Below are positions 15,556 to 53,270 of a stretch of DNA of 64,000 nt, piece by piece (within the stretch, counting starts at the first letter, position 1; each line of letters begins with the position of its first letter). The notes beneath the pieces were generated by a model. The model was given only the letters and a program-made list of their open reading frames with translations. It made no database searches and was not told where the DNA came from. A program made the position numbers and the translations under genes. Source of the DNA: Carcharhinus longimanus (taxonomy: Eukaryota); the NCBI GenBank assembly GCA_030264375.1, contig JASCQW010000132.1, positions 67,393,552-67,457,551 of the forward strand, read 5' to 3'.

Positions 15556-15801
15556 CATTACCCTGGTTTAACTGAACTAGTCCCACTTACCTGTGTTTAG
15601 CCCCAATCCCTCTAAATCATTCCTATCCTACTGCATGATATGTCAGACATCCTGGTTAATTTGAGGAAATGGTGCTGGAGAAGGAGTTTCTGTGTGACCC
15701 TTCTCCCAAAGGGAGCTGAGGATAATTTCCTGGCTAAATTTGAGATCTGGCTGTCGTGTTTTTGTAATCTCAATTTGAAGGCTGGATGTTTCAAATTCAA
15801 A

Positions 15802-16858
15802 GATTTGATTTGATTTGATTTCATTTGATTTATTATTGTCACATGTATTAGTATACAGTGAAAAGTATTGTTTCTTGCGTGCTATGCAGACAAAGCATAC
15901 CATATATAGAAAAGGAAAAGAGAGAGTGCAGAATGTAGTGTTACAGTCATAGCTAGGGTGTAGAGAAAGATCAACTTAATGCAAGGTGGATCTATTCAAA
16001 AGTCTGATAGCAGCAGGGAAGAATCTGTTCTTGAGTCGGTTGGTACGTGACCTCAGACCTTTGTATCTTTTTCCTGATGGAAGAAGGTGTAAGAGAGAAT
16101 GTCCGGGGTGCATGGGGGTCCTTGATTATGCTGGCCGCTTTCCCAAGGCAGCGGAAAGTGTAGACAGAGTCAATGGATGAGAGGTTGGTTTGCATAATGG
16201 ACTGGGCTTCGTCCACAACTCTTTGCAGTTTCTTGCGCTCTTGGACAGAACAGGAGCCATACCAAGAATGCTTTCTATGGTGCATCTGTAAAAATTGGTG
16301 ACAGTCATAGTGGGCTTGCCAAATTTCCTTAGCCATGTGAGAAACCCAAAGCATTGGGTGAGCTTTCTTAACTATAGCATCGACGTGGAAAGATCAGGAC
16401 AAGTTGGTGGTGACCTGGACACTTAGAAACTTGAAGCTCTCAATCATTTCCACTTTGTCCCCATTGAAGTAGACAGGTGCATGTTCTCCACTGTGCTTGC
16501 TGAAAATTATAACTATTTCCATCATTTTATTGACATTGAGGGAGAAATTACTGTTGTTGCACCAGTTCACCAGATTCTCGATCTCTTTCCTGTACTCTAT
16601 CTCATCATTGTTTGAGAACAGACCCACAACAGTGGTGTCATCAGCAAACTTAAAAATCGAGTTGGAGGGGAATTTGGCCAGACAGTCGTAGATGTATAGG
16701 GAGTACAGTAAGGGGCTCAGGACACAGCCTTGTGGGGCACCGGTGTCGAGGATTATTGTGGAGGAGGTGCTATTGTCTATCCTAACTGATTGCAGTCTCT
16801 GGGTTAGGAAGTTGAGGTTCCAGTCACAGAGGGAGAAGCCAAGCCCCAGGCCAGGGAG
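15802..16858 (-). mobile_element. Rex1/Babar-clade LINE, 5'-truncated (RT plus 3' tail)
   Basis: [59 protein letters not shown]; (caaat)n tail at 15802-15830. Confidence 0.9.
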
Positions 16859-16959
16859 GTATACTGTATCCATTCTTTGAGATCTGGGGTTGGTTATATA
16901 CCCGATAGCTAATCTTACATTATTTTGACCTCAATGTTCATCGACGGAGGCTGATAATG

Positions 16960-18000
16960 ACTGGATAAGATGAGACTTTATCACCTTCCAGGGCCTAGTT
17001 CTCTCTCTATCGGGGCTTCTGGACAACAACACAGCAGCAGTGCAGAGACCCCGATGAAGCTATTGATGGATCTTTGATGTTGCTCAAAAATCCTGTCAAG
17101 GTTTTGGCCTATTCAAGGTCCATGGATGGCTATATTACCCTGCAGTCCATTATTAATCCTGAACTTTTGTTGTTATAATTCTGATTTTTGATGTCCTTTA
17201 TCCTGACAAGGGTGTTTGATTAGTGAGCATAGAGGTACATGATGCCTGTTATCCTGTGACTCTTTGAAAGCCAGGGTTATCCATTTATTGATAAATCTAC
17301 CAATATGCTCTGGCAGTGGAATGAGGGAGACTTTCGTTTAAGATGTGTTACCATTTACATTCAATCTTGGTCTTTCCATGTGGTACCAAGAGAGCAGTGT
17401 GGGTAAGGGGGGGTCTACCCACCCTGCTTTTGGCCCTGTGTCAAATTCAAATACCTAGGATTGAGTGTTTGTAATATGGAAATAATTCCTTTGCTTGTGA
17501 ACTGATAATGGGTCTCCATCATTCTTCTGGGAAACGTGCTATGATGGTTGTAGGGCATCAGGGTTTATTCTTTTCCTGTATTGCATTCCTGGCATTTTAA
17601 GGATAGTATCCTTTACTTTAATTATAGATAACAGGAGTATCGCCATAGCAGAGTGATGGGAGGGTGGTTTGGTACAGAGCTGGTGGTTATGGCCTCATAG
17701 GTCCTCATTGTGGGTGAGGGAAAACCCCCTTTAGAACTAATGATATCACATTTTTCTTTGGTATTTTTGTTGTTAGTTTGGGGTTAAAGAATCCTTGTTG
17801 GTACAGATAGATCAGGTATCCCAGAAAAGATTGGGTTATTTTGTCATTGATGTTGGAGTTGGGGAAATTTGTGGTGGTGCGCATCCGAGCGAGGTTGGTG
17901 AATCCTTGGTTGTCCAGCATTTCTTGTGTTGGTTTCATATATTTTCCAAGGCTGCACAGGTTGTGGAAGTGGCTAGTTGGTAATTTGAGTCCTGGGATGT
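16960..18000 (-). pseudogene. Decayed tyrosine recombinase ORF (Ngaro/DIRS-like)
   Basis: Hand reconstruction with single-base frameshifts: N-terminal LATSTTCAA-WKIYE; FLGYLIYLYQQG..NVISLVLKGV..P; AMAILLLSIIKVKD (box I-like); NGNTS*TKV; box II at 17070-16965 reads SINSF-RGLCTAAVL-CPEAPIERELG-WK-DKVSSY versus consensus HSFRRG.AT.A...G.....I..LGRWKSD....Y. Confidence 0.55.
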
Positions 18001-18146
18001 ACGGTGAACACAGCATCCTGTTGGGAGGAAGAGGTTCCTGTCCTCCCCCAAGTTATCCCGATTGGGATAGATGACTGAATGATGCCACTTCCTGTTGCTA
18101 TGATTTCCTTAACAGGGGTTGAATTGGTGGAAACTCAGGGCCTGAG

Positions 18147-18508
18147 TTTTATTTTTAATTCATTTATGGGGGCTGAGCATCATTGGCTGGTCTGGCATTT
18201 GTTGTCCATCCCTAACTACCCTCCATTTCAGAGGTCATTTAAAAGTCAACCACATTGCTGTGGGTCTAGAGTCATGTATAGGCCAGACTGGGTCAGAATG
18301 ACAGATTTCTTTCCCTAAAGGACATCAATGAAACACATGGGTTTTTAATGACATCATTTAATAGTCATCATTGGACTTAATTCCAGATTTTTTACTGAAC
18401 TCAAATTTCAAATCTGCTGTGGGGGAATTTGAACCCAGGTCCCCAGATCTTGACCTGGGTCTCTGGGTTACTAGTGCAGTGACAATACCACTATGCCACT
18501 GCCTCCTC
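18147..18508 (-). mobile_element. tRNA-derived SINE with LINE-derived 3' tail, inserted in the YR element
   Basis: Reverse complement reads gaggcagtggcatagtggtattgtcactgcactagtaacccagagacccagg...gggttcaaattccc...tttagggaaagaaatctg...aataaaa; same family as 29870-30128. Confidence 0.8.
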
Positions 18509-18944
18509 TCGGGTTTGACTAGAGCTGGAGAAGTTTGATGTTTGAAGCCCAGGGATGACGTGAGTATTTAACTGCTTTGTTGTTCTATGCTTATCTGCGA
18601 CTAGGTTAGAGATCCTATGGAGAATATTGTAGACAAGGGTGTAGGCAGTCCTCCCTCAGTAAGTCCCCTTTTGTGGACTTCTGGACAGCTCTCCTTCTTG
18701 AGGTTTAGATTCTCCTGGGAAGGTAGTATCCTGTTGTCTGCAGGGCCTGTGTGTGAGCCCAGATACTTGGGCTCCGCATTATCTGAGTTTCTCCAATGAG
18801 ATTATGAAACTCTGTTCCTGATATCCTGCATGTGAGAGTGTACACTGTCAAACCGTGTCTTATGTCTATGGTCTTATCCTGGTGTTATTCCATCTTTGAG
18901 GTTTAGTTTTGTTATTTGGGTTAGTGGGGTGCTGATGTAGGCTC

Positions 18945-19320
18945 CAACGCGATTTTCCCAAAAAAATTCTAAGTTCCCAATGTGCGGGAAAATGGGGGTA
19001 AATCCCACAGTTTGTTTTGGCATGATGGCTGACCAGTCCCTCCACGCCCCCATCGCTAGCCTTTTGACCTCTCCACCCTCTGATCTTCCCGGGCCAGCTC
19101 CTATTTCTCCAATGCCACCCTCCCAACCATGGCAGCCATGACCCTCCATCTTCTGATAGCCAGCTCCAATCACCCTCATTCCCTTCCTCCCCCACCGATT
19201 GTCTGGCAGAGTAGCAGTGGATCTCCTCCCTACTGTCCCTCATGGAAAAAAGATCATGGCCGACTGCCGCTCATGAGCTCCTTTGGCCCTGACCCTTTGG
19301 CACTGCCCGATGTCCAGTTG
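18945..19320. mobile_element. GC-rich MITE fragment (probably non-autonomous Harbinger-type)
   Basis: cgcgattttcccaaaaaaattctaag...ggggtaaatccc matches the terminus at 25592-25650. Confidence 0.6.
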
Positions 19321-20524
19321 GTGAGATCTCCTTGGTGGAAAAGTGAGTTAAATTTTCCAGCTGATGGTGGGGCTTGAGCGACACCTCCATTATGGCTGGA
19401 GATAAGTGAAACCTGCTTTATTGTGAGCCCAAGCCTTATTGGCTCTTCTTTTATTTGCCTCAATATATTTTACTTCTCAGGGCTGTGCAGGCAAGAGTAG
19501 CAACTATTTTGAAAATCTGTATATGGAAGGTGTGGAACTTAGATGTTATTGAAAGGGGAGTATTCCATCCTTCCCTAAGATGCCGCCCCAATGTGGGAGA
19601 CATCTGGAACAGCTCCACTTGCTAAGCTTTAGGTTTCCCTAGTGGAAGGTATCCTGTTATCTGTGGGTGAGTATAATTATTTGGGCCCTGTTTTCTCCAC
19701 CCTCTTCCCATGAGACTGTGTAGTTCTTCTCCTATTATCCAGTATGTGAGAGTGCATGCTGTTACATCACATCTTGGGTTTGGGATTATATTCTGATGTT
19801 TCCTTCTTTCTGGGGTATCCTGTCATTGTTCAGAGCTTTTGGGGAGCTATTTTAGGCTCTGTTTTTTATTTGATCCCACACGAGTTCCCTTGTGCTGTGT
19901 AGCTCCATCCTTATTATCCTGCATTCTTCTGTGGAACTGCTTTGGCCATTTAAAATTCAACCCATAGAGTTCTACTGCCTGCTAATCTCTAGTCAAATCC
20001 ACTGTGCCATGTGCTCCTGGCTTTTGCCTGGTATCCTGAGATCCCACCCTTTTTGTAATATCCTGTCATTATCTATGCAAAGGGAGGCACCAATTACANN
20101 NNNNNNNNNNNNNNNNNNNNNNNNNNNNNNNNNNNNNNNNNNNNNNNNNNNNNNNNNNNNNNNNNNNNNNNNNNNNNNNNNNNNNNNNNNNNNNNNNNTT
20201 TTCCTGTTATCCTGATATCCCACACTTTTTGTAATATCCTTTCATTATCCGTGTGAAGGGAGGCACCAATTTACAATGAATTGTAATTGATAAGCTGAAT
20301 CGATTGTAATGATTTTTGCCAGATTTTTCTGCTGGCATATGTGGAATGATGATAGTTCTGTGCTGTACTGGATTTTGCCATGGCTGCAAAGCCTCTGGCT
20401 CTGAGTATTTGATTTGTTATCTATTGTGAAAGGAATATATTGATATGCACGCCTAAACGTGGCATCAGTTTATGTTACTGATGAGCTGGGTGATCCTACT
20501 GAGGTCCATGTAGGCAGCCTGTAC

Positions 20525-20805
20525 CAGAGGCTTCCCCAGGCCAGTCCCTATATCACCCGTCTCCCCCCGATCTCCGCGAAACCTCTGGACAGTCCCAAAA
20601 CCCTCTCCCCAATTCCAATGATCATCCCCGACACCCCCCACAACAGCCCCAACCCTTCTGCTAGTCATCTTTTCTCCTTCCCTCCCCCCACCAATCCTCT
20701 GGCAGAGTGGCAGTGAGTCTCTCCCCTAGCAATCACTCCCAATAGGCCCTGCCCCCTTCACACTGCCCAGTGAGCAGTGCCAGTTTGCCTCTTGGGCAGT
20801 TCCAA
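20525..20805. mobile_element. GC-rich MITE internal fragment
   Basis: cccccaccaatcctctggcagagtggcagtg...ggccctgcccc..cactgccc shared with 19190-19310 and 26310-26390. Confidence 0.5.
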
Positions 20806-25587: not shown

Positions 25588-27044
25588 GGGAGGCGATTCT
25601 CCGAAAAAAATTCTAAATGTCGAATTCACGTGAAAACTGGGGTAAATCCTGCTTTTTTTTTCAGCGGGAGTTTCAAACTGAACCTCCTACACTCTGTGCA
25701 CAAGCATGATTTGCTCCAGAAATCAGTGGGTGGGGCCCCTTCCTGCTGGAGAGGCCGGCAGCAGAGCGCTGAGCGGGTCACTGTCAGCACCGATCTGTCA
25801 GCCCCGAGATCAGCACATAAGCAGTGGCCCCACACTGCTGGACATCTAATTGCTGGCCAGCTCGATCGCTGGCTAGCGCCTCGACCCCCGCCTCACCTGT
25901 CCACACCCCCATGGCCTGATTGTTGGTTTCCAGGAGATGTCTGGGCCAATCTCAACTCTCCCCCCACCTGTCCCAGCCTGCCTCAAACTTGTCCCCCCAC
26001 CCCTCCCCCCAGTGCTACCACATNNNNNNNNNNNNNNNNNNNNNNNNNNNNNNNNNNNNNNNNNNNNNNNNNNCTCCCCAGCAGGTGCAGTGGCCCACTC
26101 AGTGCTCTACTGCCGGCCTCCTGGGCAGGAATAGAAGCCCACTGATTTCTGGAGTGAATCATGATTGTGCGCTGCAGGATGCACTGAGTATGGGAGATTC
26201 ATTTTGAAACTTCCACTGAGAAAAACAGCATGATTTACTCCCGTTTTTACGCAGATTCGACACTCTCGCACAATTCGCACATTCGCACCTATCGCTGGCC
26301 TCCTTTCATCCTCCAGAGTGGCAGTGCGACCCGCCCACCCCCACCAATCCTCACTCAAAGGCCCCACCCCACCATGAGGCCCTGCCCCCATGACTGATGC
26401 CGGTGTTGGACTGGGGTAAACACAGTAAGAGGTCTCACAACACCAGGTTAAAGTCCAACAGGTTTATTTGATTGTAAACCCACTAGCTTTCGGGGTTTGC
26501 CCCTTTGTCAGGTGAGTGGAGGGTCACACACAGAGCATATAAAGGCACAAACAGTTTATAGAATATTGATTAGAATGTGAGTCTTTACAGCTAATCAAGT
26601 CTTAAAGATGTAGACAATGTGAATGGAGACCGTCCATGCCCGGTGGCCAGTGCCAAGATGCCAATGCCCAGGGGCACCCCCCCAGGCACCCGACCCTCAG
26701 GGAGAGGGGTCTTGATTGCCCCCCCTTTAACTTCATCGGGGTCGAGCCATCAGCTCCCTGTTAATGGGGAGCTACAGCAAACCCCACTAGAGTGAAACAC
26801 TCCTGGTGGAGAGGGAGAAGCTAGTGGGCCCGGAGACTTCAGTCCTGGACCCGCTAATGATATTTAAATTACATTTAAATCAGTAGGTGAACATATAAGG
26901 TGTGGAGCTGGTGACGCCATAAATCTGGCATGGGGACCCGCACTCAAGCCTGGACTCCCAGCGCACATTGCACAAATTGGCCAACGCTAGAGTCTTCCGG
27001 CATTTTAAAAAAATCAATGCAGCGGGATAGGAGAATCACCTCCC
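25588..27044. mobile_element. Composite GC-rich MITE(s); ~170-bp inverted arms at 25619-25785 and 26088-26262; terminus ggagaatcacctccc at ~27031-27044
   Basis: gggaggcgattctcc...ggagaatcacctccc ends; internal arms are reverse complements of each other. Confidence 0.7.
26395..26630. mobile_element. Penelope-type element fragment nested in the MITE
   Basis: gatgccggtgttggactggggtaaacacagtaagaggtctcacaacacc (same family as 12916-13222); minus-strand CTGACAAA-GGGG-caaa-CCCC-GAAA at 26488-26511. Confidence 0.75.
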
Positions 27045-29869: not shown

Positions 29870-30128
29870 TTTATTTTCTTCATTTGTGGGACATGGGTGT
29901 CGCTGGCTAGTCAGCAATTATTGCCCATCCCTAATTGCCTGAAAGCAGTTGAGAGTCAGCCACTTGCTGTGGCTCTGGAGTCGCATGTAGGCCAGACCAG
30001 GTAAGGACGGCAGATTCCCTTCCCTAAAGGACATTAGTGAACCAGATGGGTTTTTCCAACAATCGAAAATGGTGTCATACCAGTAGATTCTAAATTCCAG
30101 ATATTTTTATTGAATTCAAACCCAGGTC
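29870..30128 (-). mobile_element. tRNA-derived SINE with LINE-derived tail
   Basis: ttattgcccatccctaattgcc...ccttccctaaaggacattagtgaaccagatggg...aataccactagaccatcacctcccc. Confidence 0.8.
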
Positions 30129-40159: not shown

Positions 40160-41510
40160 CATAGAAACATAGGAAATAGAAGCAGGAGTAGGCCATTCAG
40201 CCCTTCGATCCTGCTCTTTCATTCATTTTGATCATGGCTGATCAAAATCAGATTCAATATCCTGCCCCCCATACCCTTTGATCCCATTAGCACCAAGAAT
40301 TATATCTAGTTTCCTCTTGAAATCACACAATGTTTTGGCCTCAATTACTTTCTATGGTAGTGAATTCCACTCTGTGGGTGAAGAAATTTCTCCTCCTATC
40401 AGTCCTAAAAGGTTTACCCCTTATCCTCAAACTATGACCCCTGGTTCTGGACTCCCCCACCCCATTGGGAACATTGGGCCCGATTCTCCCATCTCAACCT
40501 ACAACTTTTCCGGCGGGTCCAGTTGGGGGAATTGTGTCACCGGCCTTTTTCCAGGATTTGCGCATGTGCCGAGAATGCATGCGCGATTTCCAGAGCCTGA
40601 GAACAGTCACAGTCCAGACCATGCTGGAAACCGGTGGGAAGAGAGGTAAGTGATTTGAATCTTTTTTAATGTAGTTTAAATATATTTTGTATGTGATTAT
40701 CGGGCCCGGCACAGGCCGAATACCATCTCTCACCCTGCCCAGGAGTACTTATTCTGGTAGGATTTAGAGTGGCTCCCCACATTTGGGGAAGTAGTGGGAG
40801 ACCCCACTGGAGTGAAGGGGGCCAACCGGGGAGTCAGGCAGCAGGGGGTGGTGCCCCATCAGCATAGGCAGCCTGGCAGAGAAAGCTGGTACCTCCTGGC
40901 ACTGTTCAAGGGGCAAAGTGCCCATGCCCAGGGAGCATCTTGGCACTGTCCACCTGGCAACAGGCAAAACCCTGACAAAGGATCATCTGGACTTGAAACA
41001 TCAACTCTTTTCTTTCCTTACAGATGCTGTCAGACCTGAGGAGATTTTCCAGCATTTTCCCTTTTGGTCTCAGATTCCAGCATCTGCAGTATTTTGCTTC
41101 TACCTTGCATTAAGTTGATCTTTCTCTGCACCCTAGCTATGACTGTAACAGTATATTCCGCGTGCTCTTGCTTCCTTCTCTATGAATGACATGCTTTGCC
41201 TGTGTAATGTGCAAGAAACAATACTTTTCACTGTATACTAATACATGTGACAATAATAAATCAAATCAATCCTTCTTCAGATAAGAACACCAAAACTGCA
41301 GGTTTTCTGTGCCTTCACCAACGCCCTGTACAATTGCAGCAAAACATCCCTATCCCTATATTTAAATCCATTTGATATGACGGCCAAATATCATTTGCCA
41401 TCTTTACTGCCTGCTGTACCTGCACGCTTACTTACAGTAACAGATGCACGAGGACTCCAAGGTGTTGTTGAGTATCCACCTCTCACAATTTACACCCTTT
41501 CAAGCAATAA
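40160..41510 (-). mobile_element. CR1 3' fragment with nested MITE (~40476-40970), Penelope repeat (40972-41102) and Rex1 tail (41105-41270)
   Basis: atagaaacataggaaatagaagcaggagtaggcc tail; gggcccgattctccc MITE end; ctgacaaagg..gacttgaaac; caataataaatcaaatcaa; CR1 resumes at ~41271. Confidence 0.75.
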
Positions 41511-52199: not shown

Positions 52200-53270
52200 A
52201 ATCATGAGGTTTGAAAATGCAAGGCCCTTTCTGCTTTTCATTGTCAAGGAGCACTCAGTCTTGTCCATTTCTCCCTCTGGTAAGCATCCCCCATTTGAAG
52301 CATCAGGTTGTGAAGGGTGCAACAGACCACAATGATGCAGAAGACTCACTGTGGAGGATAATACAGAGCTCACCATGAGCAGTCCAACACTGGAAGTGCA
52401 CTTTCAGGATACCAGTGGTCTGCTTGATGATGGATGGCGTTGTCCTAGTCATGGCATTGTATCTGTCCTTGGAATGATCAGAGGACAACACATGGGTGTC
52501 ATGAGACATCATTTGAGAGGGTTCCCCTGATCCCCAAGCAGGCAGCCCTGTAACCACTGAGGCCCTTTGAATATGTGTGGAACCTGAGACTAGGGAACTG
52601 CTGGGGTACCTGGCACAAATGTACATGAGGTGCTTCTGGTGATTACATACTAATTGAATATTCAGGCAGTGGAAACCTTTTCTGTTTAATGAACATTAAG
52701 GGCTGTTGCTATGGAGTTCTTAAAGCCTTACATGCACAATTAATTGCATCCTGTACTTGAGAGGATCCTGACATAGCTGCAAATCCTAGGAATCTTGCAG
52801 CCGGCTAGCTTCATCAAGTGCGAATTTCACATAATGATAAGCCTTATTGTAGAGGGTATCTTTCACCTCCTTGATACATATGTTGAGGGCATAGAAATCC
52901 TGTATAAATGGAGATTCCTGGAACGATCCACAGGCAAAATATTGAGCACAGCGGTGACCTTCACTGGCACTGGCAGCATATGTTCTCCCACAGAATGTAA
53001 CAAATATGATCCCCAGTTCTGTCTGAAGCACACAATGCATGGCATTATCTGTCACTCAGCTCCAGATAGGAAAGTCTTCTTCAGTAGACCCTTGATCATG
53101 CAAGTCGCTTTTGTGGAATGGCAGGCAGAGGGGAGACCGATGGAGGGGAGGCGAGAACTCAACATGGAAGACAAGAGTGTAAACAAGAACGGGGCAGATG
53201 GGAATTGAACTGATGGGAGCGGATGTATGCACATTCCGGATTTTGAGGTGGTAGTGGCAAAGGGGGGGTA
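52200..53270 (-). pseudogene. Near full-length decayed HARBI1-like Harbinger transposase (element spans ~51775-53450)
   Basis: RVY*RRLSYLELSDR*C..LPVPVKVTAVLN(fs)FACGSFQES..CIKEVKDTLYNKAYHYVKF..N*TEKVST..YICARYPSS..DRYNA..SIIKQTTGILKVHFQC..(fs)IIVVCCTLHN. Confidence 0.85.

Follow-up and report, generated by a model that had tools for sequence, protein, structure and literature searches.

Among transposons that rely on a tyrosine recombinase (YR), those of vertebrates comprised, as of 2011, DIRS elements, Ngaro elements and a few Cryptons, according to an excerpt of PMC3212892, where Cryptons are further ascribed short terminal direct repeats. Among retroelements of the L1/Tx1 type, fish L1 elements lack an A bias, according to an excerpt of the review PMC9099904. 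The repeat compared with these systems here belongs to the shark Carcharhinus longimanus (assembly GCA_030264375.1, contig JASCQW010000132.1, forward-strand positions 67,393,552 to 67,457,551), this whole stretch of 64,000 nucleotides (nt) being referred to below as the window. The original prediction, made from the letters alone, viewed this repeat, which hosts several nested insertions (hence host repeat), as a decayed tyrosine-recombinase element with no visible reverse transcriptase (RT) and possibly of an undescribed class. The present analysis describes it as a dead member of an old repeat family with multiple copies, for which the preferred reading, held at a probability of about 40%, is an eroded or non-autonomous retroelement with recombinase motifs arising by chance.

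The host repeat and its other copies

The locus is delineated as follows, positions being counted within the window.

15630..20515, minus strand: host repeat copy, about 3.0 kb (2991 nt) once a 100-N gap and the three nested insertions are taken out, with approximate ends as given in the original prediction
15802..16858, minus strand: nested 5'-truncated long interspersed nuclear element (LINE)
18147..18508, minus strand: nested repeat resembling a short interspersed nuclear element (SINE)
18945..19320, no strand assigned: nested piece resembling a miniature inverted-repeat transposable element (MITE)
17010..17451, minus strand: host-repeat stretch with the deepest cover by other copies

Contigs of four sequencing runs were aligned to the window at 80% likeness, and other copies were found on every host segment in all four, as reflected by the number of contigs per run carrying an alternative letter (3-6 at 17949, 12-24 at 18750 and 8-19 at 20294) or a differing letter (1-4 at 15701); at the flank sites, the locus contig aligns alone. 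Cover by other copies reaches a summed depth of 204-430 at 17010-17451 versus 6-27 in the left flank, depth not being equivalent to copy number, and is patchy elsewhere, with the locus contig alone at 16957-16958 and at 19585, a pattern compatible with many old copies as well as with a small number of fairly close ones. The stretch 16860-18140 is present in 22 listed runs from 10 studies; no RNA run was listed with it, which says nothing about expression.

Between the window and selected locus contigs, 122 of 4708, 172 of 2667 and 129 of 1812 letters differ, and the same locus, nested insertions included, is present in organisms 3-7% diverged. The LINE and SINE junctions are bridged by contigs of runs X7 and X17, and a LINE junction by X18; as junctions are shared at 6-7% divergence, the host repeat is older than insertions that themselves predate this divergence. 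The variation seen amounted to 40 of 989 differences, 12 of 86 insertions or deletions and 15 of the 3068 joints listed, among which last no empty site occurred. The host repeat thus belongs to an old family with multiple copies, of which the one at this locus is dead.

The three insertions described in the original prediction are confirmed as such, their names (Rex1, SINE and MITE) being labels taken over from it. The LINE matches RVT_1 (E 7.8e-12) with a very high depth (about 1e5-1e6), the SINE-like repeat has a depth of 3e4-3e5, a second copy in the window at 29870-30120 and a junction common to related organisms, and the MITE-like piece has partial matches at 20674-20738 and 25593-25649 as well as a GC skew opposite to that of the host repeat. 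The strand bias reported earlier also holds, with a minus-strand AT skew of 0.13-0.30 in the five host segments versus -0.01 and -0.04 in the flanks, and the strongest 3-kb AT skews of the window fall within the host repeat.

Tests for a tyrosine recombinase

The recombinase had been read from minus-strand peptides in long, nearly open frames, leading to a YR box II. The nine peptides looked up are indeed found at 17976-16965 in the order proposed, but they alternate among three frames; a further one containing a stop and the two-letter WK are visible in frame translations only. As for the openness of the frames, none of 6 minus-strand host segments or sub-segments exceeds dinucleotide shuffles (lowest p 0.06), in a test that the nested LINE passes as a control (0/500 and 0/200 shuffles) and that recovers, out of 30 simulated cases at each level, 17 at 10% decay and 10 at 15%. 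Two features of this region matter for what follows.

16965..17070, minus strand: non-significant string of box-II-like motifs distributed over three frames
17705..18052, minus strand: stop-free frame of 115 amino acids (aa), the longest in the host repeat, with no relative found and p 0.20 in the longest-frame test

With the 17705-18001 part of this frame, a word-based homolog search restricted to longer proteins retained 0 of 24 candidates, a PDB search gave a best E of only 0.61, and the ESM Atlas returned unnamed clusters at 0.91 with low recognition. One frame searched by phmmer against 1.84 billion representatives had no match at E<=0.001, five stop-free frames had no match below E 0.3 in PHROGs, and 731 open reading frames (ORFs) or proteins compared with the region by tblastn gave 9 short matches, none of them in the proposed motif register. 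Pfam applied to three single frames of the region gave no host-repeat family at E<=1, DUF3504 being within range; this blank is uninformative for a YR because an intact Ngaro-like YR of a second clade also goes without a Pfam match. That clade (L132, L138, L141, L150 and L165, with the YR at about 1550-2690) displays G-D-W where clade 1 has G-R-W; RT-ribonuclease H (RNase H) lies upstream in each locus, 764 relatives were found, and the intact member in question has no Pfam match at E<=0.01.

Profiles were built from intact YRs of the two Ngaro-like clades (35, 138 and 113 sequences) and, separately, from 12 bacterial and phage relatives (L182-L193), i.e., the enzyme family originally proposed, Cre-like enzymes being included in the tests. 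The seeds contained no vertebrate Ngaro, DIRS1, PAT or Crypton sequences; in a motif scan for DIRS1/PAT-type seeds none scored as a YR, and scans of viral contigs provided none. Single-frame hmmsearch with the YR profiles found nothing in the host region, and frameshift-aware alignment gave no significant match, the best z score being 1.9 across 23 settings (2+9+6+6); in a repeat of this setting, the score was matched by 20 of 400 shuffles as well as by 10 of 74 real window tiles. The bacterial and phage profile gave z from -0.4 to 1.2 on the region. As such, recombinase identity rises above chance in no profile test. In the cross-clade test, with 50 simulated copies per level of decay, 50 were recovered at 10%, 48 at 15%, 26 at 20% and 4 at 30%, so that power is lost above about 20%.

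Box II, said to need four frameshifts, required five with a pattern tailored to the site; at five, the pattern has a single match in the window, shuffles having been counted only at four or fewer (0 in 12), which makes the comparison unfair. As a block, box II ranks 25/653 and 143/650, or 17/653 and 109/647 with other profile settings, and the proposed N-terminal block ranks 312/646 or 258/651. Box I and box II, which had already looked far apart in the original prediction, are separated by about 187 aa versus 116 in row 1 of alignment A1; likewise, the N-terminal motif is about 303 aa from box II versus 250-258 in 12 intact Ngaro loci, the motif spacing being 50-70 aa longer than in intact loci. 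No YR profile passes in 23 settings, at a power of 48/50 at 15% decay; against these profiles, this is the very outcome that the original prediction had named as refuting its recombinase call. The motifs probably arose by chance, and a recombinase origin is unsupported though still conceivable.

Origins considered for the host repeat

The eroded or non-autonomous retroelement preferred here would be a single dead copy of an old family, repeatedly invaded, in which all five host segments would belong to one element. The family would likely have spread via an RNA intermediate, as suggested by the strand bias and by hairpins near the presumed 3' end, and its proteins would have been eroded past recognition or, likely, borrowed from a partner element. 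The features concerned are as follows.

15630..15801, minus strand: segment past the LINE with the same skew, presumably the 3' part of the host repeat; linked to the rest by inference
17009..17128, minus strand: pair of neighbouring predicted hairpins that overlap the box-II-like string, one of them with a 10-bp stem and a 6-nt loop

The hairpin pair has a folding z of -3.28 (0/200 shuffles), having been chosen out of 102 window-strand folds, and the wider 16990-17150 fold has a z of -1.93. Another predicted hairpin, on the plus strand at 18659-18778 (z -2.88), was set aside, being lost in the duplicate at 19578-19697 (z -0.28). An Rfam scan of the region gave 0 matches.

Several observations weigh against this preferred reading. 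The RNA step is deduced rather than observed, and neither a poly-A tail, nor a long terminal repeat, nor a target-site duplication was found for the host repeat. The depth of other copies is highest over the proposed catalytic half of the recombinase and stops near its proposed tyrosine, and the profile z scores are mostly slightly positive, which hints at residual coding structure. For copies 20-30% from their ancestor, moreover, the tests have little power (26/50 and 4/50 for the YR, 10/12 and 5/12 for L1), and an ordinary coding element could hide here.

The internal repeats and the repeat near the ends are as follows.

19543..19859, minus strand: copy 1 of a 320-nt internal duplication, matching 18624-18944
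18624..18944, minus strand: copy 2 of the 320-nt internal duplication, matching 19543-19859
20023-20098 and 20199-20275, minus strand: 88%-identical pair flanking the assembly gap 20099-20198
17199..20214, minus strand: dispersed heptamer CAGGATA, 11 of the 21 matches in the window, all 11 on the minus strand
20493..20501 and 15625..15633, plus strand: 9-nt direct repeat near both presumed ends, noticed after the fact

The copies of the 320-nt duplication are identical at 207 of 307 columns (67%), with a score of 195 versus a shuffle maximum of 72.5, and their mismatches have no codon-position bias; of the repeat-built ORF placed upstream of the recombinase, the repeat-built DNA therefore stands but not the ORF. 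A weaker similarity between 19543-19859 and 19860-20098 (z 4.7) suggests that units of about 180 nt may be older than the 320-nt duplication. The 88% pair may be in part an assembly artefact: one contig of run X7 jumps from 20022 to 20199, and at 20065 no contig has the letter of the window in three runs. CAGGATA is the commonest 7-mer of the host repeat, with 0/500 shuffles equalling it when the duplications are kept and about 2% once they are removed. As for the ends, no convincing target-site duplication was found at those of the host repeat or of the nested insertions, nor any terminal inverted repeats, inverted arms measuring 21-24 nt (71-81% complementary) at the longest and not lying at the ends of the host repeat.

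A decayed Ngaro-type retrotransposon (DIRS order), of which the circular cDNA would have been integrated by its own YR and the RT-RNase H since eroded and partly duplicated, is a doubtful though still credible candidate. Like Ngaro elements (an excerpt of PMC9210276; intact loci among L002-L122 and L132-L165), the host repeat has a box-II-like string with a Tyr 8 residues after the Trp, if several frameshifts are allowed, the rank of 17/653 and the single match of the tailored pattern counting on the same side, together with an apparently modest copy number and a depth of other copies that is maximal at 17010-17451. At one setting, profiles of both clades point weakly to RT-RNase H upstream (6/250 shuffles) and a YR downstream (20/400) in the expected order and on the expected strand, and a concatenated RT-RNase H and YR profile gave z of 1.0, 2.1, 0.0 and 1.1, with 0/30 shuffles in one of four runs. 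These settings were, however, picked from many, and real window tiles score as high in 4 of 56 cases for RT-RNase H besides the 10 of 74 for the YR; in smaller runs of the both-clade RT-RNase H profile, 3/30 and 0/30 shuffles did, and with the clade-1 profile on four segments 38, 3, 14 and 7 of 100, while the RNase H end block ranks 336/666. This test recovers 20 of 20 simulated copies at 15% decay, 15 of 20 at 20% and 0 of 20 at 30%; the outcome is a weak hint of an eroded Ngaro and against an element that never had an RT. Besides lacking a significant YR or RT-RNase H match, the host repeat departs from Ngaro elements by the overlong spacing given above, by the absence of split direct repeats (A1 ... 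B1 A2 B2), the 5' and 3' segments being dissimilar in this copy, the ends of which may be lost or decayed, by its A-rich strand (intact Ngaro loci have an AT skew of -0.30 to +0.18, negative in 9 of 12) and by the internal duplication lying where the RT is expected; from DIRS1-like elements it differs by the absence of inverted terminal repeats. A second by-eye Ngaro register with intact-like spacing (YR start at 17723, RNase H end about 190 nt earlier) places the N-terminal motif about 219 aa from box II versus the 250-258 of intact loci, and was rejected, its chain ranking mid-table (88/320 at best). It is far less probable that the element carried a recombinase and no RT, in the manner of a Crypton-like DNA transposon or a viral integrase module excising and reintegrating as a DNA circle, with the repeat-built region in place of the RT. 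The undetected RT core, the 67% duplication occupying the expected place of the RT and matched by other copies at 80% or more in patches, the 9-nt direct repeat near both presumed ends and an inverted repeat near 17095-17070 (10 bp, 6-nt spacer) would all suit such an element, and the short direct repeat recalls Cryptons (excerpts of PMC3212892 and PMC13465315). Yet both repeats were noticed after the fact, the duplication could be particular to this locus, no DUF3504 or other YR match appears in three single frames, where Cryptons would carry one, and the recombinase itself is unproven; it was rightly stated that no RT is visible, none reaching the level of detection, but this cannot carry the claim of a new class when the recombinase is equally undetectable. 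Equally improbable is the fuller version, namely an undescribed family of RT-less YR DNA elements of this animal lineage, in which a divergent recombinase with widely spaced boxes would follow a repeat-built region carrying CAGGATA binding sites and recombination would occur at the 9-nt terminal direct repeat.

Alternatively, the host repeat could descend from an ancient LINE of the L1/Tx1 type, of which it would retain the 3' half, from the RT through the thumb, the zinc knuckle and the C-terminus to a structured 3' end. Such a LINE, inserted by target-primed reverse transcription and 5'-truncated, is unlikely here, though less so than an RT-less recombinase element. Its likeness to the L1/Tx1 ORF2s L194, L218, L306, L216, L217 and L219 lies in an A-rich sense strand resembling that of three L1 ORF2s (AT skew 0.11-0.28), in L1-like motifs read by eye in order from about 20450 to 17280, including a Trp-Pro-Trp spacing at 17424-17281 that resembles the C-terminus of the L194 ORF2, and in the depth of other copies, which climbs from 18114 towards 17010, the presumed 3' end. 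A profile from a single L1 sequence reached z=3.5 (0/100 shuffles), but the alignment is gappy, follows a register other than the by-eye one and is lost when segments are taken singly (z -0.8, 1.2 and -0.1); a three-sequence profile gave z of -0.9 and 0.4, or -0.8 to 0.9 with the duplications removed, and the L1 profiles altogether ranged over 0.7-3.6 (6 settings), -1.3 to 2.5 (4 settings) and -1.4 to 3.1 (16 settings). At the predicted site, the RT-core block ranks 136/488 and 100/494, the nested LINE coming at rank 1, and the C-terminal block ranks 25/485 at 17235 with one profile and is unsupported with the other; the by-eye register was thus rejected, the RT-core block failing where predicted and the profiles giving it no support. 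With a held-out L1, recovery is 12 of 12 at 15% decay, falling to 10 of 12 at 20% and then to 5 of 12 at 30%, the L1 seeds comprising no fish or shark sequences. The host repeat further differs from an L1 by the lack of a 3' poly-A or repeat tail and of a target-site duplication at its presumed ends and by duplications inside the would-be ORF, and the lack of A bias stated for fish L1 elements counts against the A-rich strand as a link. Regarding the seeds, L218 matches LINE-1 ORF2 structures (E 7.5e-36), and one further seed came from scanning two sets of prokaryote genomes (401 and 400) for contaminating L1; 48 other loci contained no L1. Two prokaryote records, G001 (L195-L238) and G296:C56, contain intact animal-type LINE ORF2s, with Ngaro also in G001, and are likely contaminated by host DNA; in L194 (2-3562, plus strand), a contig from a viral collection, a bacterial-looking ORF continues in frame into a mammalian-type L1 ORF2, and this contig is likely chimeric or contaminated.

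Every membership test having either failed or been left open, the host repeat is filed under no named family. Three incompatible by-eye readings of the same DNA, namely two recombinase registers and an L1 ORF2, find no support in their own register. Beyond the candidates weighed above, other classes hold what remains of the odds; a new element class is unlikely.

Neighbouring repeats and significance of the family

Elsewhere in the window, further copies of the LINE 3' end occur at 1647-1809 and 41099-41269 (86-87%), and the second SINE-like copy is 71% alike. Relatives of the MITE-like piece lie at 20520-20800 and 25593-25649, one of them adjoining the presumed 5' end, where it may mask the true end of the host repeat. 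At 52306-52695 (minus strand), a fragment of a Harbinger-type transposase is recognised (DDE_Tnp_4, E 0.0026, under the curated cut-off).

In the titles and abstracts found in the literature, no shark YR family is described, and the present family may already be catalogued in Repbase or Dfam. If the RT-less recombinase element were true, a further class of YR elements once multiplying in a vertebrate genome would lengthen the list of 2011. The locus also calls for caution, since one and the same decayed DNA yielded three mutually incompatible protein readings that looked convincing by eye, none of them supported. As an unnamed old repeat family, the host repeat is worth adding to the repeat library.

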